A stretch of DNA of 64,000 nt, from contig JAUCBJ010009084.1 of the NCBI GenBank assembly GCA_032718475.1, forward strand, positions 1-64,000, in the 5' to 3' direction. A program made the translations under genes and the position numbers. Positions 1 to 45,006 of this stretch are shown here, piece after piece (position 1 is the stretch's first letter; each line of letters begins with the position of its first letter). Source of the DNA: Nemertoderma westbladi. Taxonomy: Eukaryota; Animalia; Xenacoelomorpha. The notes beneath the pieces were generated by a model, which saw only the letters and a program-made list of their open reading frames with translations, made no database searches and was not told the DNA's origin.

Positions 1-202
1 GCGACATCTAACTGATTTACCCACAGTGTAATTAGTTACGTAACGGAACCTTATTGGGATATATATATATGTATATACGCGCATAATGGAGAAGGAAATT
101 TGAGCGCAACCGCGGAGAGGATTTACTGCCAGAGAGGAGGCGGAGCTGCCATTTGCCCGACCGGGATGTAAGGATTCGAATGTTTACTACCACGGTAGGT
201 CG

Positions 203-1252
203 GTGATGGAGCTAAATGTGAAGTATAAACCCGCTTATGATAAAGAGTTAAGGAGGGAAAGAATGAGAGCGTTGGGGGACTGTATGGAAGTTTTGCGGAA
301 AGAGTATCGCACTCGGTATCCCTACGATTTCGCGTTAGACGTGTGCGACATTAGCGCAGACCCGGACGAGGAGATTGCGCAGCTGTACCATATGAACATG
401 TATTTACGACACAAAGAGCCTTTACCTGCAGTCCGAGATCAGTTCGACGGAATGCATCTGTATCGGAGGACTCGAGGCGAGGATCAAGAGACGTCGAAGG
501 TCTTCAGTGTATACAAGTTGTTCTACAAATGTGGTGAATGCATGAACAAACAAGACGTAGCAATTCCCGACCGATTGGACGAGCATCATCCTGAACCGAT
601 ATTAACGCGATGTCAAGCTCATCAGTTCCTTAGATATAACGAGGGAGGTTACCCAATGAGCAACCCGATGATCAGTATCGACTTCAGCGGAAAGCAACCT
701 CCAAGACCCATTACGCCGACCGTTACGACTTTAGATCCGTATACGGAGATTAAACCCTGTTCGACACCCAGTTTGATAGAGACAGCAGCGGCCATTTCGC
801 TGTACCGAGCCTACAAGGACCTAGAGGCGCGGCGCGAAGCAGCACGGGACTCGGGTACCAAACCTGCGGGTTTGGAGCTCTCAAGTCCCTGGACTACGTT
901 TACTTCGCCTCATCGAGTGAGAGCTCTCACGCCTGAGCATCAGGACGACATAGACGCGTTGCGGCAGGAGGAGCGAGCGGCGAAAGCGAAACAATTATTC
1001 GAAGCGCGGATAGCGGAATATAATAAGACCGCGGATAGACATCAAGAGGAGACGAGGAGAGTGACCGGATTTGTTCCACAGGCCGTATCTCAACCCCGAC
1101 CGGTGTATTATTCCGACGGTAGCGAACCTGCGATATTGGTAGATCACCTGGAGTCGCGAGAAGCGATTAGATTCTTGCCGATGGTGAGGATGTCGGATCA
1201 TTTGGAACGTCGACTGTCTACGGGAAGTTTTATGCGCGAAGTTCTTGCGTGA
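203..1252 (+). CDS. Accessory ORF of element A, N-terminal part (unknown function; CxxC..H..CxxH possible Zn site); probably once fused to the downstream exonuclease
   Basis: 349-aa ORF; frame extends to ATG at 86 across one TGA; homologous to element C remnant (YPYD motif); overlaps the next ORF at an apparent 1-nt frameshift. Confidence 0.6.
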   Translation: MMELNVKYKPAYDKELRRERMRALGDCMEVLRKEYRTRYPYDFALDVCDISADPDEEIAQLYHMNMYLRHKEPLPAVRDQFDGMHLYRRTRGEDQETSKVFSVYKLFYKCGECMNKQDVAIPDRLDEHHPEPILTRCQAHQFLRYNEGGYPMSNPMISIDFSGKQPPRPITPTVTTLDPYTEIKPCSTPSLIETAAAISLYRAYKDLEARREAARDSGTKPAGLELSSPWTTFTSPHRVRALTPEHQDDIDALRQEERAAKAKQLFEARIAEYNKTADRHQEETRRVTGFVPQAVSQPRPVYYSDGSEPAILVDHLESREAIRFLPMVRMSDHLERRLSTGSFMREVLA

Positions 1253-2099
1253 TGTCCCGATGCAGATCACAGACTACGACACATTGGATAAGATTGGAGC
1301 TCCGGGAAAAGAGAGTAAGTTATTTGGATGGTTAGACAAGTACATTAAGGTATGGGTCGCAGTGGCTACATTCCCAGATGACGAGGAGGTAGACCAGGCG
1401 TGGCTGAGGAGAAAGGGATCTTACACCCGATATGACGACCACAAGGCTATCGAGCGCATGTGGACCCCATCCGACGAGATTCAGCGTCAGTGGAGGAAAA
1501 CGGAGGAATCACTGCAAGATTGGAAAGTGATGTTTTACGACAATGAAGGAGGGTCTCAACAGGAATGCTTGACTAGTAAGTGCATTCAAATTCGCGTGGC
1601 CGATGGTGTGACTCATGTGTTTATGCGCGTAAGGGCGGATAGAGAGAGACCGGAGCCCATAATCACGGCGCAATATCGGAAAGGGAAGGATCCTAGGGAA
1701 CAGATTTTGGAGGTATGCAGGCGAGGAGGTATGCACGGAGCGGAGCGTATCGATGCCAGGATGCTACCCAAGAAGGTTAGAGAGGCGATTCTTAGCCAAG
1801 ATTACGTCAAGGTGGGATCGGGAGTCCAGAGCGATTTGGAGAGTGACTTCAACGCCATGACTGATTTAGAAGATAGATTGCCGAGACCGTTTGTCGACAC
1901 CAAGCTATTGTTGCTATGGGCACAAGACATTGGAATTTATAGGGAGTATCCCAACTCTGCCAAGACTGGTATGGGCTTCATAGCACATTTATTGTATAAT
2001 TGGGACTTCAAGTTGAAGACGCAGAAGAGGAAGCGTATGGTGAATATAACACGCCACCGGGAGCGGAGTTCAAATCCCACTTCAAGCGGCAAGCGTTAG
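1245..2099 (+). CDS. DEDDy 3'-5' exonuclease domain (WRN/EXD2/Mut-7-like), retrotransposon-encoded; C-terminus frameshifted, continuing to ~2301
   Basis: ExoI VMFYDNEG, CIQI, LPKKVREAILSQDYVKVGSGVQSD (ExoII), FVDTK, GMGFIAHLL; ExoIII-like QYYLVLE in a shifted frame at ~2137-2157. Confidence 0.75.
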   Translation: MRDVPMQITDYDTLDKIGAPGKESKLFGWLDKYIKVWVAVATFPDDEEVDQAWLRRKGSYTRYDDHKAIERMWTPSDEIQRQWRKTEESLQDWKVMFYDNEGGSQQECLTSKCIQIRVADGVTHVFMRVRADRERPEPIITAQYRKGKDPREQILEVCRRGGMHGAERIDARMLPKKVREAILSQDYVKVGSGVQSDLESDFNAMTDLEDRLPRPFVDTKLLLLWAQDIGIYREYPNSAKTGMGFIAHLLYNWDFKLKTQKRKRMVNITRHRERSSNPTSSGKR

Positions 2100-2520
2100 T
2101 GTATTGGAACATTTACGCGCCACCCCGTGCGTCACACAATATTATTTGGTGCTTGAGTCGAACACGGTAACTTGTTTATAAGCGGATATCATTGCGCGAG
2201 TTTAGAAGCGTCATTCATTGGTGTTCGGAGGACGATTGGTGTATCTGGGTAGGGGGCGAAAGAGAGGAGCGAGCCCGAAGAACCCAGGAGCGGGTCAGTA
2301 ATGCATCGTATCACGGGGCGACAGACTCTAGATATATACATCATCGTCGCTCTGATGTATATTGTAGCATTTGTAAATATCCGACTTGACACATATACAC
2401 TAGTCGCACTGATTTGGATTCATATTATGAGAGAGGCGAAGGAGGTGATTGGGGAGACAAACCTGCGGGTTTGGCTTACTCTTTTCACCTACCCTAGCAA
2501 AATTTTTTATAATTTGAAAG

Positions 2521-2660
2521 TATTTTGTAAATTTAATTTGTATGTAGCAATCATTATGTAGAACGAATGAGAAACAGTATTTTTTGTAAATTTAATTTGT
2601 ATGTAATAATCGTTAACATTGAGAGAGAGATAATATTTTGTAAATTTAATTTGTATGCAA
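2521..2660 (+). repeat. Three copies of TATTTTGTAAATTTAATTTGTATG in the 3' UTR of element A
   Basis: Direct repeats ~57-60 bp apart; also present inverted at ~48010-48150. Confidence 0.7.
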
Positions 2661-2818
2661 TTCATTATGCAATATCTATAGCAATATTTGTAAATAGTAG
2701 AATTATTATAGTACCAAGATATTTAGATTATTTGAAAGAGATTTATTTTGTTTTGTATACATCGCCTTACACTCTTCTACAATTGGAGGGAAACATTGCA
2801 TGATTTCCCTTGGAGCGG

Positions 2819-4250
2819 TGTTACGGTATATGGCGCTGTACCTACATTATGTAATACATTAGTCCGTTATACAGTATAATAATGTTAGTCCATTATGCAT
2901 TATAATATATTAGTCCATTATATAGTATCATATATTAGTCCGTGATGTAGTATAATTATTTAGATAAGGCATAATGCGCAATGATATTTAGATAAGGAAA
3001 CTGAAACGCCCATATATTTTGAACTCATCCATTTTGTATAGTATGTAGCCCTACCTATGTAGTTTTGTAATAGGATATAAGTAGATAGTTCCAGGGTAGC
3101 AAGTCCTTGTTGGACCCTGGATCTGGGCTTGCCGTTATTAGCCTTGATGAGGCTAGCTACTGGTTTTAATTTCTCTATAATTGCGCTAAATTTATATTTG
3201 TGCATGATATTATTAGTACCGCCAAATTAAGCATCGGGAAAATTACCTTATATGGTGGCAATTTGCGATTTCAGGGAGCAATAGGCTCACAATCCGGCTC
3301 TCTTATTGGCCTAACTGCTTCCAGGTTGGTCTAATGTTAGCTCGGATTGCGGAGCCAATGAGAGATCGATTGCATCACCCTTCTCAAATCACCTATAAAT
3401 TGGCGTACTTCCATTGTCTCTACACACACCCCACACAGCTCACCTTCAACTATTATTCGATGCTTAGTTTTTTCTGTGTAAATTACTGCCCTTTTGATTT
3501 TCTTGCAATGATTCGCTAATTTGCAATTTCTGTTTGATTCTTGTTTGTGTTTCTCAATCAATCTCAATGATCGCTGTTAATTACAAATTGGAACTATGAT
3601 TTCTACCCCTTAGTAAATGGTTCTATGTGATTCCTTTCGACAATAATCCTACGGGATTTCTCAGACTGTCAGACTTTGTGATTTGCATGTGCCGCTACGG
3701 TAGCTACTCATTATGATGGAGGGCTAGGGTACCGGTAAGCGCGGCGGGTGCATCGGGGGGTTAGCGACGACGGGAGTGCGGAGGATTCAAAGACAAGTGA
3801 CATTGGGGGGATTACTATTGCGCGCAAGTTTGCAGCGTAGAGTGGGTCAGATACGCCGGTTCGGCAATTAGGGGCTGATGATCCAGGTTTTTGTAGCATT
3901 TTGTAGTATTAGGGGGACAGGAATTGGGTTAGTTAGGAAGCCTAGACGTAGCCGGGAGAGATCTGTGTCCTTTACGTTGCGAGTTGCGAGTTGTGAATTA
4001 CTAGCTAAACTGTAGATTGCGATTGTTGTTATGCTGATTGGTGCGTTACTAAAGTGTGCCTAATAAATCACGAATGCTTGGATAGGCGCTCTTTTCCCCT
4101 TTGATTGATTTCTATTTCTTAGCTTACTGTAATTAATTTCTGATTAGGTCGAAAATAATACGGTATTTTAGGCTGTTGCTAGTGTGACCCGTTGCGTAAT
4201 AATTTAGAATTACGCACTCTGGAATACTTAGTAATTAGTACGCCGTTACA
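2819..4250 (+). repeat. LTR of family A (~1.43 kb)
   Basis: TGTTACGG...CCGTTACA termini, preceded by GGAGCGG; CCAAT ~3356, TATAAA ~3395, AATAAA ~4062; matching termini in the inverted copy. Confidence 0.7.
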
Positions 4251-4315
4251 TATTTGTGACTGAAATTAATTAGTAAAATTAGGAATTTGTACGCTGCATA
4301 GCGGAGGGTAGTTAA

Positions 4316-5872
4316 CCCTATTAGTACCGGGCTATAAAATGTTGTACAAATACCGGGAGGGGGTCATATTGACCCCCCCCCCTCTAAAATCTACAAATAT
4401 TTACGAAAACGTCTGATTTTTTGTTTGTACTTAGGTATCACTTGTCTGGATCCGACCGAAAAAAAAAAAATTTTCGAAAAAATGTACTGGGGTGGTTATA
4501 TTGCAGCACCAAAATTACAAGTAGTGCACAATTTTCACAAAATTTGAAAGTTACATTTTCGGCTAATTATTTTTCAATACAGGTTTTCTGGGGTGCAAAA
4601 TACATTGGAAAATATTTAAAAATGATATGATTACTATAAATGGCTGTTTAGTCCTCTCTGCGTAGGAAAAAATGAAAAAAACAAGTAACCAGCACTTTTC
4701 AGTTAGAACACAAAATTTTTAATTCACTTATACGATGCTATAAATTCACATTTTCAGGTTTTCGAGGGCGTTGATTCTAATGGAATATATTTCTAATATG
4801 CCAGATCATTGCTACTTGTATTTTTCGGCGCAATTTGGCAATTTTTGGTGCTAGCACCAAATTTCGTACCCATCACCAAAAAGTACAAGTTTGCGATGTC
4901 CAGTGCTGTTTTTATGGATTCCATCGGATTCAGGACCCTCATAAACCCGTATAACGCAAGAAACAAGGTGATACTATCTCCTGATCAATTTGCATATTTT
5001 CCAAAATTTGGTGCTGGCACAACAATTTTCACCCACTGGCGAAAAATACAAGTTTGAGAACTCTTATGAAATTTTTACTGATTCCATTGAATTCAGAACC
5101 ATCACAAACACGTATAACGCAAGAAACAAGGTGACACAATCAATTGATATATTTGATGGTTTTCAAAATTTGGTGCTAGCACCACATTTTGCACCCATAT
5201 CCGAAAAATACAAGTTTGAGATGTCTAGTTCGATAATTATATATTCCATTGAATTCAGAACAGCCATAAACCTCTAAAACGCAATAAATAAATTGTCACA
5301 AGCAATTTTATCTATTGAATGAATTTTCAAAATTTCGTGCTAGCACCAAAATTTGCACACAGCACCGAAAAATACAAGTTTGATACGCTTGGTGCAACTC
5401 GTATATATTTCATCGAATCCAAAACCCCAAAAAACCCCAATTGCGTAAAAAACAAGTTTCAAACAATCAATTTACAAAATTTACATAATTCAAAATTTGG
5501 TGCTGGCACCAAAATTAGGCACCCACCGAAAAAAACAAGTTTGAAATTTCTAAATCAATTTATATGAATTCCATCCAATTTCTAACACCAAAAAACCGGT
5601 GTAAATAAAAAAGAGATGTTACAATTCATATTTAATGAAATGTAATTTTCAAAAAACGTCTCAAAAAAAGTGCCAAAAGTAGGGTTAAAAAATGGTGCTA
5701 TAACTCGAAAAGTACCCAATATTTTTGAAAACGGTTTTCACTACTAGGAAGACAATAGATTTTTAGGAAAAGTCATAAAATTTCAGATTCCCAACTGCGT
5801 TTGTTTCAGAATTATAATAAAAAAACCACGGGGGGGGTCATATTGACCCCCCCCCCCCCGGGTTTAATAGGG
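4316..5872. mobile_element. piggyBac-like non-autonomous element (TTAA TSD)
   Basis: TTAA at 4312-4315 and 5873-5876; TIR CCCTATTA..CCGGG; subterminal GGGGTCATATTGACCCC at both ends; empty site visible in the homologous copy at ~46395-46410. Confidence 0.9.
4845..5515. repeat. ~163-bp degenerate tandem repeats, each with a palindromic TTTGGTGCT(A/G)GCACCAAA core, inside the piggyBac-like element
   Basis: Five cores at ~4845, 5008, 5170, 5335, 5498. Confidence 0.7.
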
Positions 5873-6489
5873 TTAAGGTAATAATTTAGAGTACCGTACA
5901 CTATTCACGCTGGGCGGTTATTTGAATTAGCGGACAAAATTCACATCGTAGTATACAGTACGCAGCGCGCATCAGTAAATTGCTGGCCTAAAGCCAGCCG
6001 CAGATAAGTTTGAGTCCCGAAATAATTACCGTACCGATTTTCGATTATTTTAAATATTCTCACATTCACACATTCCGTTAGGGAACCCCAGTATTGCGAT
6101 TAGACGTGATTAGAAAAGACGTAGTTGTAAGCACAATTTTACAGTAATATTAGGCTATAAAATACACTCTGAGTGTCAAATCTCTCACACTCGTTTTAAG
6201 TCAGCTTAGGGAGCCGATTCGGGTTTATTGTTTTGGTTATTCCCGCGTGGCTCATATATTCGAACAGTTAGCTCTCTATCGAGTAATCGGTAGAGAAAGG
6301 AATGAGAATTTAGTAGGAGCCGTAGAAATTTAGGAAATATATTAGCGGACGGCAGATTAGCGCCATCCAACGGTAAGTAGTGGTTTTCCGTATCTGAAAC
6401 CCTATATTAGTAATTATACGCTCCTGATTGCCCCGTCTAGTAAATAGAGCAGTTTGTGTCTTTATTGGTTAGGCTGGGGTAGTTCGTTT

Positions 6490-6935
6490 AACAGTAAAGG
6501 ACGGTATTATTTTATTGCACACAGCAACAGTATTATTTACTGTTACTTCGTAACAGTAAAGGACGTGATATTGGCTGTTGCTTGCAGCAGTAAAGAGTGT
6601 ATTCAGCATTAGATTACTGTATTATTTACTGATACTTCGCAACAGTAAAGGATGTTTTTTGTTTTGCTGTACTGCGTACAGTAAAGTACGAATTAGATTA
6701 CTGTATTAGGCACTGTCTGACTGTACTGCGTACAGTAGAACATAGAGTGTATTCTTAGGCTGTTAGTTTAGATTACTGTATTCACTGGTTGCATACAATA
6801 GTACAGTAGTACATTAGGCTGATTGCTGTTACTGCATACAAGTAGAAAATACATTTGTTTTGCTGTACCGCACACAGTATTCATTAGGCTGTTAGGTTGG
6901 TGTACTGTTTTACTTACTGTACTGCGTACAGTGGA
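6490..6935 (+). repeat. Array of short hairpin repeats in the 5'UTR of element A
   Basis: Recurring TACTGCGTACAGTA and ACTGTTACTTCGTAACAGT palindromes. Confidence 0.6.
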
Positions 6936-7794
6936 TATGCGGTAGTGCTTTTACAAATCACAAATACAGCGGTTCCTTAGGCCGTTAGGGCAGGCCGTAA
7001 TTAGTAAGTTTTTGAAAATTTTAGCTAGGTTTGTGAGAATACAGTTTTGGTAAAAATTATTTTGTAATCAAATCTAGAGTTTTGTACCGGTATGTTGGAT
7101 AACCGCTTAGTTATTTTATACCATCTGGAGATACATGGCAAGACGGAGCTTCTGAGTTTGGGGTTCGTGTGGGTCTGCGGGTTCGGTTTGCAATCAGTGA
7201 AAGGACTGAAACTTTGGACGCGGACGTGGAATCTCACAGCAAACAAGGTTAGTTGTTCTGTTGGCACCATTGTGTTTGTGGAAGCAGTAAAAAATTATCG
7301 GTTGTTTAACTGCGAAGCTGAACTCAATTTATTAGTTAGGATATTTAGGTTTAGCCGACCATGGGTTTTTGAATCGCTCGAGTTAGAGAGAGAGAGAGAG
7401 GGTCGTAACCCGAAGATGTAGCCATGCGCTAGTGGATACATATAATATTTGAAATTAAAATTGCGTTGATTAGAGTTATCTATGTAAAATTAGAAATATT
7501 CGGGTGGCAGGTATATTTTGAATATTTTGTATTAGATTCAAAAAATTATTTGTGTCATACCAATATTTAAATACTATATAATAACTATAAATTAATATTT
7601 TGTTTAAATATTGTACTGGTATTTGCTAAAATTAGATCCTATTAAATTCACAATATTGCATTGCAAATTTATTTTGACATTTTGGACAAATTGATTATTT
7701 GACAATAATTTAATCGTATTTTCGGTTAAATTATATATATATCTCGAACTTTTGCGAGATATATTTTTGCCGGAAGGCAAATATTATTAAGACT

Positions 7795-10700
7795 ATGAGT
7801 GTCTCAGAGAAGGAGGCACTAGAGGACAGCTATGAGACGGCGGCAGGACCGCCGACTGACGATAGCGTTAATATTACTGTTGACGACAATGCCGACTATG
7901 ACGACGCAGCGAGTGACGCTGACGTAAGCGAACAGGAGGACGAGACAGTAACCAGTGAGGAAGAACAGCAACCTCAGGTAATAGTATTAGGATCCCCTAC
8001 CGCTACTGTAAGGAAGGATTGTACAGCAACCCAACCAGAGGTGAGTGATAGGGAGGGTAGTGTAGCAGAAGCGAGAGCCCGGAGCCCGGTTTCCAGACCT
8101 GTGGGTATGGTAAGTGCCGTGGTCCCAGTGGCTAAAAGGAGTACCCGTAGTTCCCGAAATAATCCTTCAAGTCCACTAAGTGTTAGTCAGGTAAGCGAAA
8201 GTGAACTAGACATCGCGATAAAGAAGAAACTTCGCGCGCATGCCGGACATATAACCCGTACGGCGGACAAGGTAAGGAAGATGTTAGCCGACTCAGCGAA
8301 CATCGGAAGGGAAGGGTTAGTAGAGATTAGAAGAGGATACAACTCAGCGTTATTCAAACAAACGGAGGAGCTTGCAGTCCTAGCAAAGAAGGCAGTAGAG
8401 TCTCAGTCGAGCGACGTGGCGACGAGGATTTACGACAGGGTTTTAGCAGCCTTGTTGGAGCACCGCGCGTTATCGGAGCCATTTCGACGAGTTAGGACGG
8501 AGAACTGGCTGCTATGGGCATCACAAGCGCAGGCGACTCAGGTGAGTGACACAGAGTTGAGAGATTTAGTGGAGCGGGAAGAAACGCAAGATAAGGAGGA
8601 GCGCCGTTATCAGCGGGAAGTTACCAGCTGGCTGATGCAGAGTGGAGTGGTGGTACCGGGCCAGGTGCTACCGATGACGGAGAACATTCAACAGAGAACG
8701 TTAACTCCACCCGATGATGCATCTAGAAACAGTGGCGATTCCCAGGTTAGTCACGCGCGAGGTAAAGTTATATGTGCTAGATCCCTTGTTTCTCACAACT
8801 CGGCGGAGGAGAGAAGACGCCGACTGGACGAACAGCAGGTGGAAGTTTTGCGTGCATCGGAAGCACGGAAGGAAGCCGAGCGGGAATGGGAGTGCACACG
8901 TAAGTTAGACGCGAAGTTGCGAGAGTTGGAAGATAAAGGTAAGTGTGAGGGATAGGAAGATGGAGACCGAGAAGGGGATGCGAATGATCGAAGAATGTGG
9001 GGCGAGTGTAGGGACTGAGTTGCGAGAACTGTTTGCACTGCAGAAGGCCGAACAGGAAGCGAGAACTCCGACCATACGCGAGTCGACGATGACCATAATT
9101 CCTATACCCGGTCCAGCTATTACGAGTACACGGATCGCTAAACCGTTCTCTACATATCGCACGCCAGTTGGTATTAGTGCTTCACCTATCACGCAGAATC
9201 CAGCGCATCATCGCACCGCACCACTATACACGGAATGCGAGAACGAAGAGTTTAGAGAAACTCCGACGGGCCGAGTATTTGGCGAACCGAACCCGCGGGT
9301 TTGGAATACGTGGACGGAGCGCCGACCCAGTTCGACGGAGAACTTCCGGGTTAAACCGGAAGAGGGATCATATGAGAGACAGCGGATTACTCAGATAGAG
9401 CCGACTATACAACAGAACCCTAGCCAGGAATTTATTACGAGGGATGAGTTGAGTGCTAGTTTAGCGCAAGCTATATCGCCGCACATCCAACCTATAACGG
9501 ACATGCTTAGCAACCTACGGTTAAAGGAAGCAGCCCAGGTAAGAAGTAATTCTAATCCTAGCAGGCCTGAGTTAGATAAAGTCCAGCCTAGTCAACGAGT
9601 ACGCATATCGGAGGCAACTATACCACATAGACCTCATGTAAGGACGCCTGTCCCGAATATCCATAATCCCGATTTCGAAAATTCGGCTGAGAAATTTATA
9701 CAAGACGCTTGGATGCCTAAGGAGGTGAGGTCTCTATAAGTGTGTCCAAAACAGGCGGCGGCGGACTCGTGAGGGTCTGGGGACACGTTAAATCTAAATG
9801 CGTCTTGTATAGTGCAAGGGAGTCACTGAAGGCCCTCGTGTCTAACGAACCATGAATTGCCATGGTGCCGTGGTAACGTCTAGTCGGCCTGTTGCCGTAC
9901 TGCCAGTCCTGTACACAGTAGGGGTGGTGGCATGGCGTGATTTGTGGTTCATATGGTGTGAACTGTGATTTGTATGTGGGCGACCAGTGGCAGTTAGCTT
10001 TGGGGCTTGGATGTGTGCCATTGACCGTCAGCTGTTCCGTTTTTTTGATACTATATGTTATTGTCTCCATGTTCAGCTGATTGGTCTTTGGGGTGTGTTT
10101 AGGTCTGAGATGAGCTTTCTGTTGCTGTGGGTATGTGAGTACACGTGATTGTATGTATGGCCACTGTGAGTGAGTGTGGGAAACCTTGCCGGTTGAGCCA
10201 GACGCCGCTGGTATTAGTAGGAACATACTTTACTGCGCCCCAGCATGCTTTGTACACACAAGTTATTTTGCCCTGACGGTAAAATAAAGTACTCTCGACT
10301 ATCTCTTTCGCGATGTCTCTAGTCGATACAACTAGTCCCTCCTGATTTTGACCCCGATTTTGTCTTTCCCGATTATGTCCTCTGTGTGTGCATGGTATGT
10401 GTCAGATTTTGTGTTTACCGTAGTGTACTTGATATTGTGAACATCTGTTGAGTACACGTGTATAGGACTGGTAAGTGGTTACTTGTTCCTAGCTTTCGAG
10501 CTAGTCAGTATTGCTTGCGGAACTTACTTCCCCTCAATACTGCTGGCGAGGCGGGTGAAAACGTGTCAATATTCCATGTTGGGTAGCGCAAGCCCACATG
10601 GGACAAGACCGTCGGTTAGGCCCAAGGGCGACCTTGGTGCTCGATCGTTATCGACTGGTCCACCCGCCGGTTGACTCTCTGAGTTGGCTCAATGTACAGT

Positions 10701-12146
10701 CAGGCCACAGTAAGTTGACAGTAGCCGCCCATCTGGCTACACGTTCGACGAGCTGTGCCGGTGTGATCGGGGGACTGAAAACAGAACCCGGGAAGCATCG
10801 GGCCACCCTCCGGCCCGGTCTGATAATAACATCAGTCAGGCTGGCCCCAGGGGTGGTGGGACAGTGTCCGCCTCATGGGTGCGCCTCTGGGAGGAGCCCA
10901 GAAGGACACAAGCGCAGGGCCTCGGCGCATAAACCATCGCGAGCGCTAAGGACTGACACAGAATCGAGTGATGAAGAGGAAGACATGAGACGTCAGAAGT
11001 CCCGAAACTATAAGGAAAGAAGGACGGACGCGGAGCAGGTAAGTCTCAATCCCCGGGAAAGGACCAGACTTAACAACCCTGCAGAACTAAACCATTTGTT
11101 AACCCGGAACGACGCAACCCTTAGGGACATAGGTAAGTTTGCTGCTAGGCAAGGACTGCCGACGCAACAACCCCAGAAGTTTATGGGTAACCACAAGCAC
11201 TGGAGGACTTTCAAAACCTATGTCGACGAGCAGCTAACCAACAGCACCTTTACTCCCAACGAGAAGTTCAACTATTTGCTTTAGATGCTCCATCGAGAAC
11301 CTAGAGCCATTGCTGACAACTTCGTCGGCAATGAAAGAGCATTCGAGTTGGCAATGAAGATGCTTAGTGACATCTACGGGAATAAAACCAAGATGGCACA
11401 GTCGATAGTGGAAGACTTGGGTAAGGGCGGAAGGATTACAACTCCGTTAGAGCTGTTGAACTTAGCGAACGCTATTTCGAACGCATTGGACATCTTGAGG
11501 ACGGTGAATCTACCTCATCCATCATGGTGATCACGCCGAAGTTTTGAAAAGCGTAATAAGACGTTTAAACATGCGTTACAGACAGAAATGGCGCAAATTA
11601 GAGAAGAAGTTGGAGGGTCAAGGTAAGGTGTTGACACTTCAGCATATTCATGACATGATAGCCACAGACGCAGTAGCAGAGATGAAATCGAACTTCTCAG
11701 AAGAGAATATGAGAGAGTCTAAACCTGTTACCGGTAAGTCTATGGTAAGTTTTGACGATGACAGGACCACTGTGACATTTAACTTAGTAGACAGATATAA
11801 TTCGAGTACCCCAGCCTTTAGATCAGACTCGCGAGTATGGTCAGGTGAGCGGTTAGATAGACCTAGGTTGAAGCAACAGGAGTTGCCGGATGGATTTGTA
11901 GGTTGCCAATACTGTTTACCCAAAGGAGGTAAGATCTGACGACCATAATTTGGATAGTTGCAGACGGTTCAAAGAATTAAATTCGGAACAGAGAAGCGCG
12001 GACGTTGGACACCTGTTGGGCATGTCTTGCGCCAGGTCATGTACGGCGGCAGTGCCCGAACAGCAAGGACAGATGCATGGAATGTGGCAGACTACATCAC
12101 AAGTTGCTACATGCGGATTTCCACAACCCAACGGACCGTTACTTAC
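7795..12146 (+). pseudogene. gag: BEL/Pao gag (disrupted by frameshifts, stops and an LTR-like insertion)
   Basis: ORFs 7795-8955, 8945-9739, 10909-11284, 11285-11530, 11544-11939; capsid-like and Cys/His knuckle motifs; similar to element C gag (KFAARxGLPxQQPxKF, QQxLPxxFVGCxYC). Confidence 0.8.
9743..10908. mobile_element. Solo-LTR-like insertion (~1.17 kb) interrupting gag
   Basis: TGTCC...GGACA termini; flanks TAAGTG/CAAGCG (degenerate 6-bp TSD); internal AATAAA ~10283; non-coding relative to gag. Confidence 0.55.
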
Positions 12147-13420
12147 GGATGTAGGACAATTCGGTCCCGGACAATTCGGTCCCGGACAATTCGGTCCCGG
12201 ACAATTCGGTCCGGACAATTCGGTCCCGGACAATTCGGTCCCGGACAATTCGGTCCCAAAACACTAAATAAATGGGACCGAATTGTCCGGGACCGAATTG
12301 TCCGGGACCGAATTGTCATAGGACCGAATTGTCCTAGGACCGAATTGTCCAGGACCGAATTGTCCGGGACCGAATTGTCCGGGACCGAATTGTCCGGGAC
12401 CGAATTGTCTGGGACCGAATTGTCCGGGACCGAATTGTCCGGGACCGAATTGTCCGGGACCAAATTGTCCGGTTCCTAATAGCAACGAATGTTGAAGTGA
12501 ATGTTCTAAAACATTAGTAGATATATTTGTTATGCTAGCTAGTGTTATTTACTAGATATAATTTTTTGAAATTTCAAAATACTGTATTTTTTTTTATTTT
12601 TGTTATTGGTAGTGTTCGAGAACATTATTATATATTATTTATTAAGGTGTAGCTAGTGTTTTTTTTTTAACAGCTAACATTTCCTTGAAATTATAAAAAA
12701 ACTTGTGAATACATTGATATTTCAGTATTAGGCCTAAACTGTTGCTGATTATATTAATTACCCACAATATTGATGATATTATAACAGTCCCTGAATGAGA
12801 TCCAGCTATTATCTAGGATAATAATTTAGGCTTGTTAACCAACCAACAACACATACATACATACGCAATAAATAAAAAAAATCAGTTTTAAAAATAAACA
12901 TTTTAAATACATACTATTACTAGCTTGTAAATGATTCACAAGCTCCATAAAAACACTATGGTGTTTTTATGGAGGCTACCATAAATAATAATGTTAACAA
13001 AAAAAAGTAAATTTTTTTTATTTTTAAAAAAATGCTAGCTAGTAAAAAAAAACACTAGCTACCATATAATAATATATATTAAGGTTCTAGAACATTCACC
13101 ATTATATAATACCAATTAAATTTGGTCCTGGACAATTCGGTCCTGGACAATTCGGTCCCGGACAATTCGGTCCCGGACAATTCGGTCCCAGACAATTCGG
13201 TCCCGGACAATTCGGTCCCGGACAATTCGGTCCCATTAATATGCATGTTTTGGGACCGAATTGTCCTAGTCAGTATCCGGACAATTCGGTCCCGGACAAT
13301 TCGGTCCCGGACAATTCGGTCCCAAAACACAAAATTAATGGGACCGAATTGTCCGGGACCGAATTGTCCAGGACCGAATTGTCTGGACCGAATTGTCCGG
13401 GACCGAATTGTCCTGCTTCT
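12147..13420. mobile_element. MULE/foldback-like MITE with 15-bp tandem arrays (GGACAATTCGGTCCC) in both orientations
   Basis: Perfect 9-bp TSD GTTACTTAC (12138-12146, 13421-13429); imperfect TIRs; removal restores the gag-pol frame (DRYLQRNPH). Confidence 0.9.
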
Positions 13421-15060
13421 GTTACTTACAGCGAAATCCTCACAGGAAGGGGAGCAAAGAACCCGTATTGATAAGAAGGAATACGTATACCGGCATTCAA
13501 GACGATGGTTACCAACCAGGTTCGTCGGACGAGGATGGCGAGTTGAGCGCAAGAGAGGTGACCTGCCAAGGTTTCACCGCGGATAGTTCATCGACCAGCG
13601 CGCAGACGTATTTATCATCGGCCACATCGGAGATATTTAGCGTGATTCCGGTGAAACTCACTGGCGATAAAGGATCGAAGCGAATATATGTGATGTTGGA
13701 CACTGCGTCCACATTATCGTATATCGACGAGGAAGTGGCGAGAGCCGTTTCTAGCTTCCAGGACGCCGAGGAAATCCAAATAGAGTTGAAGTCTATGCAT
13801 GGAGTAGGAGACCTCAAGGGACACATAATTTCGGTGGAACTAGACTCCCTACTTCCAAGAGACCAACATACTCGACAAGAACGGAAAGCTTTGCCATTGG
13901 ACGGATTTAAGTGTCTAGCTATGAAGGGGTTCGGCAGGCAGTTAGGTAAGGTGCCGCCGATGAGTCCCATAGCACAGGAGTATTTTGACAAGCTCAGGAT
14001 ACCGAGACACCAGGTAGGATATAGGAATGTTTCTATGTTGATTGGTGCAGAACAGCTGATCGCACACCAAATATGGGAAACGAGACCAGCTGAGCCGCAT
14101 GTCAATGGACCACATGCCCATAGGACTATATTATGTTGGTATACAAGAGTACCCATGTCTTATGAATTTACAGGTGGCGACAAACCAATAGACAGATATG
14201 ACGAATTACAGCCTATAACTCAACCACCGTTAGTAGAACCACCAGACATAGACGAGTTTAGGAGAACCTGTATTGACCACTATAGTGACTTTAGCGAGTC
14301 GGACGAGGAGTTGATTCCCGATAATGTTAGGTTGTCGGAACCACTTCATAACGACCGGACAGATAGTGAACCCGAGGACTACTGTTATCAGACCAGTGGG
14401 TCTGGTTCAGCGACCCACGCTACCTATTTGAGTAACGTTTTGACTTATGCCAACATAGTGGAGGGTCAAGTGGCTAAATATCGAGACCTCAACATTTTCC
14501 AATACAGTGAGGAGGAATTACAGAAGGAATTGATACGCCAGGACCTCGAGACAGGAGCTAGAACCGTCGAATGGCTGGATAGGGACGCAATGGAACCCGG
14601 TGGGTATGACCTAGCCATGTCCTCTGATGAGAAACGGTCGCTGGAGATGATGGAAGATACCATACGTCTACTACCGACTGGACATTTTGAAGTTGGAATG
14701 TTGTGGCATCGACAACCTCCTAAATTGGAGAACAACTACACTTTAGCCTTGAAAAGATTGAACGGAGTAAGGGCTCGGTTGTTAAGGAATCCGGACATTA
14801 GGGAGAAGTATTGCGCCCAGATCAACAACTATTTCACCAAGGGATTTGCTGGGAAGGTAGAGGACCCTGACTTAGTGACAGACCAGACTTATTACCTCCC
14901 ACACCACTATATGACTCACCCTGACAAGCCAGACAAAGTCTGAGTAGTCAACGACTGTGCAGCAGTCTATAGAGGTATGTCCCTGAATTCAGAGTTGATG
15001 GATGGTCCCAACCTGAATAATTATTTGATAGGAATATTGTTGCGTTTTAGACAGCGGCGA
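13421..15060 (+). pseudogene. pol: BEL/Pao pol fragment: aspartic protease and start of reverse transcriptase
   Basis: VIPVKL..IYVMLDTASTLSYI; GHFEVGMLW; YYLPHH; stop at 14941; ends at LLRFRQRR where the satellite begins. Confidence 0.85.
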
Positions 15061-20574: not shown

Positions 20575-20915
20575 CATAATAACCTAAACTAGCACCGGTA
20601 TTGCACTGAGATAACTGAATTGGTATGATTACTGCCAAGTGGCTATATTGCACGGTTGGCCTTGTTACTCTACCTAATCGATGCCTTTCCCCCCTCTGAT
20701 TGGTTGATACCCTTGTTGGCGCCCTTTGGAGTGTTCCCGTTCACTCCACCTATTCTCTCTGGGTTAGGGGTTTGGCCCCTGACCCTCTATTGTGTGCTTC
20801 CTTCCCACTCTTATTGGGATGGCACGAGTTGGTTAATTATCCAATCTCGTGGCTCCCAATATTGCTTATCGGCTTATAACTTTATGGGGTATTAGCGGGA
20901 TTGAATAAGCTAACA
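20575..20915 (-). repeat. 3' LTR of element B
   Basis: Matches 30503-30843 except the terminal dinucleotide and one substitution that I can see. Confidence 0.93.
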
Positions 20916-20924
20916 CTCCCCCCC
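20916..20924 (-). other. Polypurine tract of element B
   Basis: GGGGGGGAG directly before TGTTAGC on the minus strand. Confidence 0.8.
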
Positions 20925-21814
20925 ATGCTATCTTCCCGGTAAGAAGATAGCATCAACCAAAAAGTGCGCTACAATCCCGCTGGATCCTGATCTAGTATCG
21001 GGTGTGGGGTGGAATTCTTTTCTCTCGGAGCCGGCTTTCCAGGCCGCCCCCTATTGGTATGATAACGCTACCCTGTGTGCCTGGCGTCTCATTTCGGGCC
21101 GATCGCGCTCACCTCTCACGCAACTTTTGTTTCCCCAACACTTCCGCCCTATCTCTTCTTCACTCCCACCCTAACTCTCTCACACTCGGACCTCCTCGCC
21201 CCTCACTCAGCCTCTTACTCCCCCCCCCCCACACTAGAATTGCGTCCGCACTCTATCCGCACTCCGCACTATTATTCCGTCCCTCAACCTCACTTCGACT
21301 GTCTCTTCCCTTCTGACGAATCTCCCCCCCCCTCTCGTGCCGTCGCACTCAAGAAGTGTGAAATTGTCTGGTGTCTCGTCCATGGTGCCATAGTCAGTTT
21401 TCCCCCAGTCCCAGTAGCTAATTGAGAAAGGTTGTATGACTATAGTACTTACTCCGAACATATATATTTCTAGATTACTAATTACTACGTACGTACATAC
21501 AAATTGCACTTATATGATTATTTTGCATTAATTAAATTTGTACTTAATAGTTCGTACATCCCACGCGGCGCCTTCCAGGCGTACCACGTCCAAGTCCCAG
21601 TCTCTCTCCCTCAACTCTGGGAACCTATCTGTTCCTCCGGGGGTAGTTCCCCCTGGCGTCCTCTTCCCTGGGTCATTTCTTGGTTATCACCGTTCCTCTG
21701 GCATCATCCGCTTTCTGCTTTCTGACCTTCGCCGCCACTTCCTTGCTGATCCCGGTCGTTGGCTCCTTGGGCGCTGGTGTTATTAGTGCCCGATATCGCT
21801 TCGCCGGTGGCCCC

Positions 21815-22774
21815 TCAGAGTGGCCCGGTTGTCTCCCTCTGGTGGCGTCCCATAGGATGATTGAGCAAACTTATCATCATCCAGTCCTCCTGCAGGATAT
21901 ATCGCTTCTGATATACCTTTATCGCTCCCCTGCGGAACTGATATACCTCCTGCTTTCCCGGTCTCGCTCCCCACTTTAGCGAGTTCGCTAGTTCTGCTCC
22001 GTATTCTTCCTTAAACTTCGCCCAATCCATTGGTTTGTGGCATGCGAGCCCCAATAATTGGCCCATCGCCACCGCCCCGCATTGGCCTGTGTTTTCGACT
22101 ACCCCCAACCCATCCGGTGCCGTCATAGCCATAAAGACTTTCTGCATATCCAGGAGGTTGGTGGCGTCCGGACCGATGATTCTCTCCGCATCCTCGCGAA
22201 TCGCCGATCCCACTTTCGTCGTCGACTTCTCTCTTACTAAGACTTGTACCGCTTTCGGTAACCGGTTTAGTTTCGGCCCGTCCTTCTTCCCATACGTCCC
22301 TAGGTCGAATAAGAAGATGTCCCCATTTGGCGCGGCCAAATGTAGGAGTATGGTCCTGGCCGACCCCGCCGTTCCTCGTCTCGAACCCGCCTCGTCTTCC
22401 ACGGTTCCCTCGTCATCTAGGATCATATATCCTCCTCTGTTGACGGACTCTATGAATCTCTTCCAGTCCTTCCTCGGTGATTCCCTCGGGTATTTCGGAA
22501 TCCCGAACTTCGCCTCGTCCCCTTTCACCACATAGTGGAAGTGTTGGAAGATCGCGTTGTCCAGCGACGGGGTCCCGTAGGTCACGACCAGCCGCTGTTT
22601 GTGCACCTCCCGGAAGTGATCCTGCAGCGCTCGTGCCGCGTGACTCCTTTCCAACCTCTCGTAGTATCCTCTCGTCTTCTCTTCCGGATGCCTCTCGGTG
22701 AAATCCACCAGTATCTCCTTTCCTCCTGACTCCGCCTTTCTCTTTCTGATCAACTTACTCGCCATTCCGAACAT
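21815..22774 (-). CDS. DEDDy 3'-5' exonuclease (WRN/EXD2/Mut-7-like), retrotransposon-encoded
   Basis: ExoI YMILDDEG; LLHLAAPNGDIFLFDL; LPKAVQVLV..KVGSAIRED (ExoII); LLDMQ; ExoIII QKRYILQED; uninterrupted 319-aa ORF. Confidence 0.8.
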   Translation of the reverse strand: MFGMASKLIRKRKAESGGKEILVDFTERHPEEKTRGYYERLERSHAARALQDHFREVHKQRLVVTYGTPSLDNAIFQHFHYVVKGDEAKFGIPKYPRESPRKDWKRFIESVNRGGYMILDDEGTVEDEAGSRRGTAGSARTILLHLAAPNGDIFLFDLGTYGKKDGPKLNRLPKAVQVLVREKSTTKVGSAIREDAERIIGPDATNLLDMQKVFMAMTAPDGLGVVENTGQCGAVAMGQLLGLACHKPMDWAKFKEEYGAELANSLKWGARPGKQEVYQFRRGAIKVYQKRYILQEDWMMISLLNHPMGRHQRETTGPL

Positions 22775-23270
22775 TCACTCGCTCACCTGCAAGGTGGTGC
22801 CTTACCAAGGCGCAATACAGATGAGTGATGTATCTAGGATGTTCTGTACAGTTCGATAATGGCCTATTTCCTACTCAACTGCGCCTTTTAACCTAAAATA
22901 TTCCTAATTAATTTTGAAGCTAGTAAATGAGCGTAATTTACAATTTCTGTCCGTTACTTTTATTATGTTCTAGAATAACTTCCCTTGTGTTGCCACTATT
23001 TTACAATTTTCAGCCCTATTCTATTTATTTTTATCTATTTACTTTGATTCTACTGTCCTACTACTTACTACTGCCTATGGATTATTCTATTCTCTAATCC
23101 ACATTCTGGCCTACTCTGTATTCTGGCCTATGCAGTACAGCAGTATGCGTCGTGTGGCCACACGATTTATCCAGCTGTACTCATATGCCCCCCTCTCTCT
23201 ACTAACTGCTAACTAATACCTATATCTATATCCCCTTTTACCTCTCTCTTACTCTCTCTCTTCTTATTAA

Positions 23271-24060
23271 CGGTACTTACGTACCCTCTAACTCTCTAAC
23301 TAACTATCGGTACTACGTACCCTCTAACTCTCTAACTAACTATTGGTACTACATACCTTCTAACTCTCTAACTAACTATCGGTACTACGTACCCTCTAAC
23401 TCTCTAACTAACTATCGGTACTACGTACCCTCTAACTCTAACTAACTAGCGGTACTACGTACCCTCTAACTCTCTGACTAGCAGTACTACGTACCCTCTA
23501 ACTCTCTAACTAACTATCGGTACTACGTACCCTCTAACTCTAACTAACTAGCGGTACTACGTACCCTCTAACTCTCTGACTAACTAACGGTACTTACGTA
23601 CCCTCTAACTCTCTACTACTACTACTACTATGATCGGCATGCTGCATTGCAGCTGCATTTCTAAGAATGCTGTGCCGGCTTGTCAACAAAATTGCACCGC
23701 CACAACTCCCTATCACCCATGACATTTGCTAGATCATCCGCATCTTTAAGGCCAGTGTCCTTTAAGATGCGTCTCAAGAAAGTCATGGGCTGTCCACCAT
23801 GCTTATTCACTCCATGAGGCTGCCAAAGTACAAGCTCTAACTCTCTAACTAACTATCGGTACTACGTACCCTCTAACTCTAACTAACTAGCGGTACTACG
23901 TACCCTCTAACTAACTCTCTAACTGGCGGTACTACGTACCTCCTAACTAACTAACTAATGGTACTTACGTACCCTCTAACTAACTCCCTAACTGGCGGTA
24001 CTACGTACCTCCTAACTAACTAACTAACTAGGTACTACATACCTTCTTACTAACTCTCTG
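23271..24060 (-). repeat. ~30-35-bp minisatellite with GGTAC-TAC-GTACC hairpin and CTAA/TTAG runs, interrupted by ~200 bp of unrelated sequence (~23630-23835)
   Basis: Repeated ggtactacgtaccctctaactctctaactaacta. Confidence 0.85.
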
Positions 24061-24242
24061 CCTACTAACTGCGTACCTACCATGTACTATTTTTTTTATT
24101 TTATTTTATTATTTTGTTTGTGGGAAGGGCGTCTCGCCCTCAATCCTACCCCCCTCAGTCCAAAACTTGGACGACTAAACTTTTCTCTAACTCTGCTAAG
24201 GTGCCCCTTCTAATAGACAGGTAACACCTCTGCCCGCACCTT

Positions 24243-26900
24243 TTACGGATCTAACTCTTCCATCCCAGTCCAACCTGTTGGACAACTCAGCGACCCAAGG
24301 GGTGATTCCTCCAGCAGGCAACTCTCCCACTGCCCCCCTATAGGTTCTCTAATTCTTCGCTCCGCTCTCCTTGTCAATTCGATAGGTGGTCTTTTCTCCT
24401 GTTTTTGCAAATGCTGTCTGTTATTTATGTTTCTGATCTCGTGGTTGTCCCTTGGCGGCAAAGTGCCACCCTTCAACGTGTCACCCGGCGGTATAATGCC
24501 GCCCCTGTTCTTCTCCTTAATCTTAGATGCCACCTCTGCTGGCCTCCCCCTTAATATGTGTGCTGGCATTAAAGGCTTCAACGACCCCCGTTCGTCCTTC
24601 GGTATACACGATGTCTGCCCATGTAATGCCCCCTCGCACTCTGTCAGTTCCGCGTGCGTACGCAGCACGCCTCCTACTCTCCCGGCTCCTTTTTCCACCA
24701 TGTGTTTATTCATGGGCTTATCTGCCCCTTGTCTGATCGTCTCACATCTTCTCCCTTTCCATCTTGTATTTTTACTCGGCTTCCCCCTTGTCGGTATGCT
24801 TCTCAACCGGACCGGCGTCTCTTTCGGACGCTCCTCTGGACACTCCACCGGACACTTCTCCGGTTTGTCCTCCCGACACTCCACCGTCCGCTCCTCTCCA
24901 TCTCCATACCGATACTTGCTGGGACCCTTATTCCAACCCATCGTCTCTAGATCTTCTGCATCCATACCATTCTCCTCCGCCCACTCTCTTGGTGTTGCTT
25001 CTACCTCTAGCTGTCTACCACTATTGCCCATCTCTGGCCTCTCCTCTATCTCGTCAGTTCCTGGCACCATGCATCCTGAACTCTCGGACACATGGAATGG
25101 TATATTACTCTTAATTGGGCCTGTCAGTGTCCACCCGAATGGTGTTAATATGGCCACCGGGTCACTCTGCTTGTCTTCGCCGAAGACCGTTTGCATTCTT
25201 TCGTGGGCCGTTGGGCAGTCCATGCCTACTATGATGGACACCTTCCTAACGTCCACGTCTGGAATTGAGAAGTCAATGTCGTCCAGGAATTTATACTGCT
25301 CGACCTCGATGTTGGTTGGCCGCCTGGCATTGATATTAATTGACTCTATCACTTGAATGGGGTCGATGGTTGCCCCATAGTCGCATCCTGGTGCCACTGC
25401 TGCAATTGCGCACCGTCCTGTTCTCATCTCAAGGATCTCATCTTTGCTAGAGATGGTTGTTACCGCCATCCTGCTTGGCCTCGTTCTCAATCCTATCTCC
25501 TCGGCCACCCATTCCTCGACTAATGTGAAGGCAGCTCCACTATCAACCAGCATTAGTGTTGTTACTGATCGATTGCCTTCCCCGATCACTCGTACTGGTA
25601 CTACTCCAAGTAGCACCGTTCCTCTCTTCTTCGCCCCTACTGTGCTCGTCGCCATCGTTTGGCCTCTCCTTTGACCAAATTTCATTGGCTTCTCCTTGCA
25701 CTCCCTTGCTCTATGTCCACTCATTACACATCGCGAGCAGATTTTATTGCTGAACGCATAATCTATCTGATCTTGCCTAGGTAGCGCCTGCCAGTACCTG
25801 CAGTTCATAGTTTGATGAAGCGCATTTGCGTGTAGCTGACATTTGCTCTTTGGGTCGTAGCCCTCTTTATACAGTGCATTGCGTATCGCAGTTGCGTTCG
25901 TACCAAAGTCCCTACTATTCTTATTGTTTGGGTTTTGCCTATTGGACGTACTGGGGTTATGTTTATTCGTGTTATTATTGTTTCCCTGTCCGTTCCATGG
26001 TGTTGTCTTATCCTCGGCTAGCTGTGGACTTGCAGTCCCCTGCGTCGCTGCATATGGCAATGATTGCCTGAGTCTCGGTAATGCGTTCGATGTGTTGTGC
26101 TCTGGTTTCGGTCTATGGTAGTCTGTCTTCGGTCCCTTTCCCAGGCTGTCTTCGCTATAGACTGGGTCAGTTATTAGTTCAGCCTCGTAGTTTAAGAAGT
26201 TTGACATTTCTTCTAAACCCGGTTCCGCACCCTTCTTATCTCGAGTGGAGAAGGCGATTTTCCTCCACTTGTTGCGCAGCCAGTTTGGTAGTGCCTGCGC
26301 TATCGTGGTGATGTTGTTGGACGCATTGAGCTCGTACGGCGCGTCTAGCGTCTTCAGCACGATTAGCGCCTTTTCGACTTTGTTAGCGAACGTCTTAATG
26401 CTAACGGGATTATCCTGTAGGCCACCCGATGTTATGCCTCTCAGCGTCTGCCTGATGATCTTGGCCGGGTGCCCGTATTCCCTATCCAGTGCCCGCCATG
26501 CTGTCGTGAAGCCGCCCTCTATTCCTTGATATTGCCTCACGATGTCGTATGCTGGGCCTCCCGTGTACACTTGTAGATACTTTAGGCACTCCGCCTGCGT
26601 CAAGTTTTTTGTTAGTATTTCGTTACTATACATGCGCCGAAACTGTAGATATTCTTCCGGCCTGCTCCCATCGAATTTGAATGGTTCCACGGGTGGTAAC
26701 TCGATCCTCGTTTTCAACGCATCGATCAACGTGGCCATCCCCATCGCCTGCGCTTCCAGTGGATTCGATGGGTGCTGCATAGTTTCTCCTGTCTGGTGCG
26801 TTCCGTCTGTCCTATTTCTTGACTTTCTCTGACTTGGGTATGTCATCGGGGGTAGCGGCCCCCTCCATATGTCTGTGTCACACGACCTATTCTCATCCAA
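24243..26900 (-). CDS. gag: BEL/Pao Gag (capsid, Zn knuckle) - aspartic protease polyprotein; pol deleted
   Basis: PFKFDGS..EYLQF, LKYLQVYTGGPA, CSRCVMSGHRAREC, LVDSGAAFTLV, TPFGWTLTGP; only a possible integrase-tail remnant (PLMPAHIL). Confidence 0.85.
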   Translation of the reverse strand: MDENRSCDTDIWRGPLPPMTYPSQRKSRNRTDGTHQTGETMQHPSNPLEAQAMGMATLIDALKTRIELPPVEPFKFDGSRPEEYLQFRRMYSNEILTKNLTQAECLKYLQVYTGGPAYDIVRQYQGIEGGFTTAWRALDREYGHPAKIIRQTLRGITSGGLQDNPVSIKTFANKVEKALIVLKTLDAPYELNASNNITTIAQALPNWLRNKWRKIAFSTRDKKGAEPGLEEMSNFLNYEAELITDPVYSEDSLGKGPKTDYHRPKPEHNTSNALPRLRQSLPYAATQGTASPQLAEDKTTPWNGQGNNNNTNKHNPSTSNRQNPNNKNSRDFGTNATAIRNALYKEGYDPKSKCQLHANALHQTMNCRYWQALPRQDQIDYAFSNKICSRCVMSGHRARECKEKPMKFGQRRGQTMATSTVGAKKRGTVLLGVVPVRVIGEGNRSVTTLMLVDSGAAFTLVEEWVAEEIGLRTRPSRMAVTTISSKDEILEMRTGRCAIAAVAPGCDYGATIDPIQVIESININARRPTNIEVEQYKFLDDIDFSIPDVDVRKVSIIVGMDCPTAHERMQTVFGEDKQSDPVAILTPFGWTLTGPIKSNIPFHVSESSGCMVPGTDEIEERPEMGNSGRQLEVEATPREWAEENGMDAEDLETMGWNKGPSKYRYGDGEERTVECREDKPEKCPVECPEERPKETPVRLRSIPTRGKPSKNTRWKGRRCETIRQGADKPMNKHMVEKGAGRVGGVLRTHAELTECEGALHGQTSCIPKDERGSLKPLMPAHILRGRPAEVASKIKEKNRGGIIPPGDTLKGGTLPPRDNHEIRNINNRQHLQKQEKRPPIELTRRAERRIREPIGGQWESCLLEESPLGSLSCPTGWTGMEELDP

Positions 26901-26958
26901 GGGTCTCGTTGTTCTTGCTCCTATCGGGGTATATTGTTGATATTGTGATGGGGGAATG

Positions 26959-29900: not shown

Positions 29901-30204
29901 GTCGCACCGTCGGCCCCACCGTCGCCGTTTCGGCGGGCCGCTCGTCGCCCTCAGCCTGTGGCTGGCCGGCGACACCGGTGCGTCGACCCCCGTCCCGTGT
30001 CGACTCGTCTCCGCCTCCCTCCGTCTCGCTCTCTCTCTCTCTCGGTTCGACCTCGGGTTCCAGGCCCCCCTCGTCCTGAACTGCCGGATGACCCGTTACC
30101 GATGGGTCCGGCGTTGTGGGCCTGTATCGCCTGGTTGCGGCCTCGCGGATCGTTAGCTCTTCGTCCGGGGTCCGCGTCGGTGTGGTGTCACCTGACCGAC
30201 TCAT
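26959..30204 (-). pseudogene. gag: N-terminal part of element B gag (coiled coil, Asn-rich and repeat segments), split mainly at G/C homopolymers
   Basis: Consecutive ORFs 30204-28648, 28645-28211, 28168-27314, 27387-26959; frame changes at poly-C 28671-28692, ~27364 and ~26968. Confidence 0.7.
28013..28252 (-). repeat. ~60-bp coding tandem repeat (EGLVGHVVGR) with GGCCT-ACC-AGGCC hairpin
   Basis: Five copies of gtggcctaccaggccctc. Confidence 0.85.
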
Positions 30205-30502
30205 CTCTCTTCTGCAGATTGGTGACTGGTGGTTTAGCTAGTTTTACAGTTTGACTAGGGCGGCAGCTCGATTTAGTTACTGCCGAAGGGTTTAGTTACT
30301 GTGACGGGATCCAAGAGGGATCCCGGTTTATCCGGTTTTAGTTCACGCGTCCCCGCCGTGTATAAAGAGTGAATGAGTTCTGATGTTTGTCGTATATAAT
30401 ATGATAAGTGGATATAGATACAGATATAGATATGGGATATATTGTTGTATATGGAAGGCGGGATATGGTAACTAAAGTCCCGGTCCTTCCCTAGCTAAAC
30501 TA

Positions 30503-44906: not shown

Positions 44907-45006
44907 NNNNNNNNNNNNNNNNNNNNNNNNNNNNNNNNNNNNNNNNNNNNNNNNNNNNNNNNNNNNNNNNNNNNNNNNNNNNNNNNNNNNNNNNNNNNNN
45001 NNNNNN
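44907..45006. other. Assembly gap (100 N)
   Basis: Run of n. Confidence 1.

Follow-up and report, generated by a model that had tools for sequence, protein, structure and literature searches.

We characterized the segment 86-2205 on the forward strand of Nemertoderma westbladi contig JAUCBJ010009084.1 as the decayed third gene of a high-copy BEL/Pao retrotransposon family; it is predicted to encode an ∼700-aa DEDDy-type exonuclease, most likely with an anti-silencing role, and we give this reading a probability of about 0.6. The term ‘window’ below refers to the whole stretch of 64 000 nt that was analysed, and ‘high-copy’ rests on 3,000-5,000 matching contigs per public run, contig depth not being equal to copy number. 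As judged from sequence, a real and selected accessory exonuclease gene is present in BEL/Pao elements, and its copy in the window has decayed. With this observation, exonuclease cargo, described so far in rotifer retroelements, is recorded for the BEL/Pao class as well, and purifying selection on ORF3 in a high-copy family is evidence that the rotifer study lacked. A naturally open 319-aa ORF in a second family, family B, can be assayed, thus making the role of retrotransposon DEDDy ORF3s (counter-silencing versus end processing) testable.

The gene (hereafter the family A gene) has the following parts.

4..35, forward strand: sites likely serving as branch point and 3′ splice acceptor, with the ORF beginning ∼60 nt further on; matched by a site in element 3
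86..2205, forward strand: decayed ORF3 (accessory gene), ∼700 codons in other copies, with two stops and three frame breaks
206..703, forward strand: domain without a known family, comprising YPYD and a Cys/His cluster with CxxC near 530 and CxxH near 611
704..1200, forward strand: Pro/Thr-rich, charged helical linker, no transmembrane segment, highest 19-residue hydropathy 0.7
1202..2205, forward strand: predicted DEDDy-type 3′-5′ exonuclease half, with ExoI D1539/E1545, ExoII KVGS..D1833 and ExoIII Y2143/E2155

We compared the region with other copies of ORF3 found in contigs from four studies (five public runs); the best-matching run shares 0.43 of sampled words, and run X4 is RNA by guess only. 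The other copies differ from the window copy at all five lesions, i.e. the frame breaks near 1201, 2026 and 2135 and the stops at 101-103 and 2179-2181. At the first stop another letter was seen at depths of 13653/13737, 17298/17509 and 26469/26780, and at the second stop at depths of 5740/5775 and 7923/7923. The length difference near 2135 was present at depths of 5761/6662 and 7733/8248; the one near 2026 was explicit in a few contigs, with loose ends in 14, 5 and 1 more. Given its stops and frame breaks, the window copy of ORF3 is a pseudogene. If length differences of the other copies are counted, the frame that opens with the ATG at 86 would be ∼709 codons long, in agreement with the protein of roughly 700 aa proposed in an earlier note on this DNA.

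The same note had described the component as selected, and the differences between copies bear this out. The counts were made on 40 of the 119 difference rows, with two rows at the 2135 break excluded. Among the differences listed, third codon positions accounted for 26 of 38 (p=1e-5), and 28 of 37 were synonymous, a stop also being excluded, against an expected fraction of 0.337 (p=2e-7); catalytic codons did not appear among these listed differences (40 of 119). In the rows from divergent subfamilies, many of which rest on one X5 contig and minor shares of X1 and X2, 16 of the 22 differences listed were synonymous (p=2e-4). As differences between copies are mostly synonymous, we conclude that ORF3 was under purifying selection. 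The skew was weaker in the best-supported, near-fixed and mostly window-private differences (15 of 30 synonymous, p=0.048, among those listed, 40 of 365), as expected with decay after insertion. Within 2027-2134, 13 of the 17 differences listed fell on third positions of the inferred frame versus 1 and 3 for the other frames; this bias independently confirms the frame leading to YYLVLE.

The window as a whole is a 417-bp satellite array with nested LTR retrotransposons. The satellite occupies 14957-50640 and 63172-63730, and between 33 and 44 kb it is organized into a higher-order repeat of ∼3.3 kb; 100 N at 44907-45006 mark an assembly gap. Pfam domains found in the window (DUF1759, Peptidase_A17, Integrase_H2C2 and DUF5641), along with RT motifs at 56058-56300, identify the elements as BEL/Pao. 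Outside the gene we delineated the following features.

2215..6493, forward strand: non-coding 3′ region interrupted by a MITE, with a TATA box at 3394 and a probable LTR; present a second time, inverted, at 48790-45758
7714..15055, forward strand: element 2, a BEL/Pao gag-protease region that reaches the beginning of RT and is interrupted by satellite; gag ATG at 7795
20577..30843, reverse strand: family B element; the 339-bp LTRs are 99.7% alike, and a protease accompanies the BEL gag (DUF1759)
21815..22774, reverse strand: stand-alone open 319-aa ORF of family B, predicted DEDDy by its motifs (DDEG / KVGSAIRED / YILQE) and hhalign
51109..59703, forward strand: element 3, BEL/Pao from gag to pol, by Pfam domains and RT motifs
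60340..60736, forward strand: acceptor and short ORF3 of element 3, behind its pol, with a YPYD/Cys-His domain

The pol of element 3 has the order PR-RT-RH-IN, with Peptidase_A17 at 3e-28 and DUF5641 at 9e-16 besides the RT motifs. Elements 2 and 3 are related to each other (57% over a gag piece, 42% in the protease), and family B, with gag recognized by Pfam DUF1759 at 6e-11, is distant from both (about 18%). We looked for RT, RNase H and integrase in the family B element (20577-30843) and found none; this copy is a young non-autonomous element in which gag and protease are kept and the exonuclease ORF is open. Paired LTRs were delimited in family B only, and no LTR match was found between A and B, in line with the earlier view that their LTRs are unrelated.

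Position of the gene behind pol is suggested by element 3. The YPYD domain and the Cys/His cluster were found where they had been placed before; they have no match in Pfam, PHROG, NCBIfam or the Atlas (Atlas 0.76), and possibly the Cys/His domain binds zinc. This half is homologous to the short ORF following the integrase of element 3 (score 81, z 10; second block z 10.6). Both the decayed ORF3 and the element 3 ORF are preceded by the same branch-point-like 9-mer and a pyrimidine-rich AG, with ∼60-nt spacing to the ATG; the acceptor pattern was derived from these two sites, so its chance figure is not independent. A common acceptor and a homologous domain behind the pol of element 3 point to an ORF3 and suggest a spliced mRNA. 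We therefore regard it as very probable that the decayed gene is an ORF3 behind pol, and its translation from a spliced mRNA is likely. Through the same homology the gene would be assigned to BEL/Pao. The ORF's own gag-pol lies outside the window, so that any assignment of the gag at 7795 to it is conjectural. An env role for ORF3 was considered and rejected, as there is no transmembrane segment and the highest 19-residue hydropathy is 0.7-1.07.

All three exonuclease motifs quoted in the earlier note, FYDNEG (D 1539, E 1545), KVGSGVQSD (D 1833) and the shifted-frame YYLVLE (E 2155), were located, and the proposed exonuclease identity is supported by ESM Atlas PF01612, by profile comparison and by a joint alignment with bacterial members. 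PF01612 appeared in 24 of 30 ESM Atlas matches; the top match (0.93, recognition 2376) shares 167 features, slightly below the tool's mark of 170, and PF01612 is carried by 11-31% of the members of those clusters. As a bacterial reference we collected 120 loci with an ExoII-like pattern and kept 117 proteins; 30 out of 30 tested were confirmed as PF01612, and the nearest PDB kin of the bacterial profile are WRN, Mut-7/Nibbler and EXD2. When A and B were aligned by MAFFT with 30 bacterial PF01612 proteins, ExoI D1539/E1545, KVG and ExoII D1833 were invariant in 32/32 sequences; since the bacterial set had been chosen by the KVG..DD motif, ExoI alone is independent evidence. The bacterial profile gave A a score of 3.7 bits, equalled by 1 of 500 shuffles. 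By hhalign its match to A was weak (E 0.037, probability 1.4%), and the match to B, from ExoI to ExoII, had an E of 8e-5 and a probability of 61%. At E<=1 neither A nor B had a Pfam match; being below Pfam detection, the protein would work like PF01612 rather than be a formal member.

The ExoIII YxxxE of A lies past two frame breaks, in a frame supported by the codon-position test. Its acid is E in both A and B versus D in 113/113 bacterial members, acidic and non-canonical, and this replacement may lower activity. Motif spacings are 98/107 in A and 75/101 in B versus a bacterial median of 58/70. A single-sequence AlphaFold model was unusable (pLDDT 34); an alignment-guided model reached pLDDT 57, its best matches being EXD2/Nibbler/RNase D at E of at least 0.019, and it is biased by the DEDDy alignment, which makes it circular. 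Searches with the A and B exonucleases in PHROGs, NCBIfam, PDB by sequence, plasmids, metagenome and viral contigs and for protein homologs were blank; the collections being mostly microbial and the searches word-limited, such blanks are weak evidence. Taken together, these results make us highly confident that the C-terminal half represents a DEDDy nuclease of very divergent sequence, its acidic set being D-E-D-E.

DEDDy ORF3s are known from rotifers. According to the sections of Rodriguez 2017 available to us (PMC5408684), restated in excerpts of PMC6431247, PMC5718144 and PMC6338049, they are carried by Juno/Vesta LTR and Athena elements. The same sections state that they were gained at least two times independently, that they are thought to be exchanged among retroelements, and that Mut-7-like silencing and 3′-end processing are candidate roles. 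As in our case, the ORF3s of Juno/Vesta/Athena/Terminon are described there as a separate RNase D/WRN-like DEDDy nuclease behind pol, typically spliced, with an altered acidic motif, patchy among families and fused to a second domain in one isolate. Unlike them, the carriers here, compared by description, are BEL/Pao; the motif is D-E-D-E versus DEED as written in those sections, and the fusion is to a YPYD/Cys-His domain without a known family. We see purifying selection in a high-copy family, whereas the env and GDSL ORF3s of rotifers that are reported there as tested looked neutral within the genome.

With the cellular DEDDy nucleases (WRN-exo, EXD2, Mut-7/Nibbler and RNase D; PF01612) the predicted enzyme shares the ExoI DxE, the LP..(x)..KVG..D block of ExoII, the FVD strand and the Yxxx-acid of ExoIII; unlike them, it has long insertions, E in ExoIII and ∼20% identity to bacterial members, below Pfam detection. 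BEL/Pao (Belpaoviridae) is a metazoan family, and its profile names env as the sole third gene (PMC8742986). The elements described here resemble the three-gene Belpaoviridae in having gag-PR-RT-RH-IN with DUF1759, Peptidase_A17 and DUF5641 and a third gene behind pol (PMC8742986); in contrast to the env-like ORF3, this gene would encode a nuclease and has no transmembrane segment. KolobokD DNA transposons, in the part of PMC9587614 available, also carry an accessory DEDD exonuclease, but one of the DEDDh subfamily and on a DNA transposon. The word ‘exonuclease’ is absent from the available main text of PMC3118150, PMC2774666 and PMC9094657. Our literature search, with subscription papers, Repbase and GyDB outside its scope, found no exonuclease described for BEL/Pao, and a search on Cer7 found nothing relevant. 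Malik, Henikoff and Eickbush in 2000 reportedly may have mentioned that a Cer element of C. elegans has an additional ORF resembling an exonuclease, which could lower the novelty.

The YxxxE at ExoIII is present in family B too, as had been stated. Of the component said to be common to A and B, the exonuclease is indeed shared; the B interior contains nothing that matches the YPYD/Cys-His half (scores 28-41, against 81 with element 3). Similarity of the two exonucleases exceeds that of shuffled sequences (z about 4.7-4.9); for whole domains with X at the breaks, 6 of 3000 local and 0 of 1000 global shuffles were as good. It does not, however, exceed the bacterial background, the A-B score of 54 being equalled by bacterial DEDDy proteins in 14/117 cases against A and 30/117 against B. 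BLASTP of A versus B gave 22.7 bits and an E-value of 0.009 over 26 aa. Traits common to A and B are the ExoIII E (0/113 bacterial), DxEG at ExoI, long spacers and the 3′ position. In the exonuclease tree, made without animal host nucleases and rotifer Juno/Vesta/Athena ORFs, A and B grouped with support 95/93, which we read as long-branch attraction because the tree is saturated, the two branches having reached the limit of 10. Homology of the two exonucleases is likely on these alignments, and the ExoIII E hints at a common transposon-borne pool, with exchange and vertical descent fitting equally.

The claim that the component is ancient rather than recently captured goes beyond what these data show: the similarity is no better than to bacterial proteins, the tree is saturated and the architectures differ. 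That the two exonucleases were captured or swapped independently, an old BEL/Pao ancestor not being needed, has close to an even chance in our estimate. The bacterial proteins reaching the A-B score, the different architectures and the repeated gain and exchange described for rotifers (available sections of PMC5408684) argue for it, and the traits in which A and B are alike (ExoIII E, DxEG, long spacers and 3′ position) argue against it; it concerns history and is compatible with every mechanism proposed below. We think it improbable that an old vertical D-E-D-E exonuclease lineage in BEL/Pao was fused to a new zinc-binding domain and acts as an anti-piRNA/siRNA nuclease; if true, it would be an enzymatic silencing suppressor encoded by an animal LTR retrotransposon.

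As to function, we tentatively propose that the ORF3 protein counters host small-RNA silencing. It would be produced apart from Gag-Pol and without a membrane anchor; the Cys/His half would direct it to RNA or a partner, and the exonuclease would act on piRNA/siRNA, or on precursors of these, by trimming or destroying their 3′ ends. Alternatively, the protein may jam host Nibbler/Mut-7-like trimming. In either case RNA of the element would escape silencing. Such a role fits a soluble product that is encoded apart from Gag-Pol and whose closest counterparts are small-RNA trimmers. It counts against this reading that the exonuclease is dispensable in a relative, no exonuclease signal having been found downstream of the post-pol ORF of element 3. 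In the pol-less B the exonuclease is open, although this possibly just reflects the youth of B.

A role in replication is rather unlikely: here the enzyme would trim genomic RNA 3′ ends, the tRNA primer or cDNA ends, or proofread for RT in the particle. WRN/EXD2-type enzymes act on both DNA and RNA, and the WRN/EXD2 kinship of the bacterial PF01612 profile fits such a role. Neither a primer-binding site nor a polypurine tract could be clearly recognized near the family A non-coding region, which makes unusual priming possible; replication has also been put forward for rotifer ORF3s and Terminons (available sections of PMC5408684 and PMC6431247). Against this, ORF3 is not fused to Gag or Pol, from which we infer that packaging is not assured; element 3 has pol and the N-terminal half of ORF3 without an exonuclease, and the nuclease of B stays open though its RT and IN are absent.

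The earlier note had joined ORFs 203-1252 and 1245-2099 by an apparent 1-nt frameshift. The ORFs were confirmed, as 104-1252 (with GTG at 203 and ATG at 206) and 1188-2099, and the junction was not, the break lying near 1201 instead of 1245. The length difference near 1201 makes up a minority of summed depth, 1297/5608 in X1 and 698/7688 in X2, with many contigs ending there, but the gap is present in 4/4 long bridging contigs among those listed (three studies), making the fusion of ORF1 and ORF2 likely, not certain. A single fused frame in working copies is thus probable. We consider it unlikely that ORF1 and ORF2 are separate genes, the exonuclease starting at the ATG at 1260 with a length of ∼315 aa, comparable with the 319-aa ORF of B. 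This ATG is found 8 nt past the ORF1 stop, the B exonuclease is stand-alone, element 3 has the first half only, and the minority depth at 1201 in X1 and X2 agrees with two genes. Yet the long bridging contigs carry the gap, and the third-position pattern changes frame at 1198-1211, ahead of the stop (2 sites between the break and 1260).

Least probable is that the protein is a DEDD derivative with little or no catalytic activity and serves, like EXD1 or Maelstrom, as a decoy or scaffold that binds RNA. This could be suggested by the ExoIII change from D to E and the wide motif spacings in A and B; against it, none of the four positions has lost its acid, and A and B, very distant as they are, both retain the ExoIII Tyr.

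Downstream of the decayed gene, a non-coding stretch (2215-7795) continues into the gag at 7795; more than 2.7 kb of it is common to two copies (76-88%), the other being at 48790-45758 on the reverse strand. A second LTR was not seen, and the stretch represents one very long LTR or, alternatively, a tandem junction; LTRs of Belpaoviridae are 0.2-1.2 kb long (PMC8742986), versus >2.7 kb in the two copies here. Upstream of the second copy, 48760-49058 was considered as a possible exonuclease remnant and dismissed, its match being limited to the last stretch near 2215. A piggyBac-like MITE (4316-5873) with TTAA-type ends, inverted terminal repeats and an internal 163-bp tandem unit resides in the non-coding region. 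Element 2 is interrupted between gag and protease by self-inverted arrays of a 15-nt unit (12154-12480 and 12996-13413). In element 3, the RNase H-integrase interval of pol has a long SPD-rich repeat insertion (57283-57850), and a motif of ∼25 nt is repeated over gag, pol and the ORF3 flanks (53004, 55638, 55716, 60027, 60853 and 60957).
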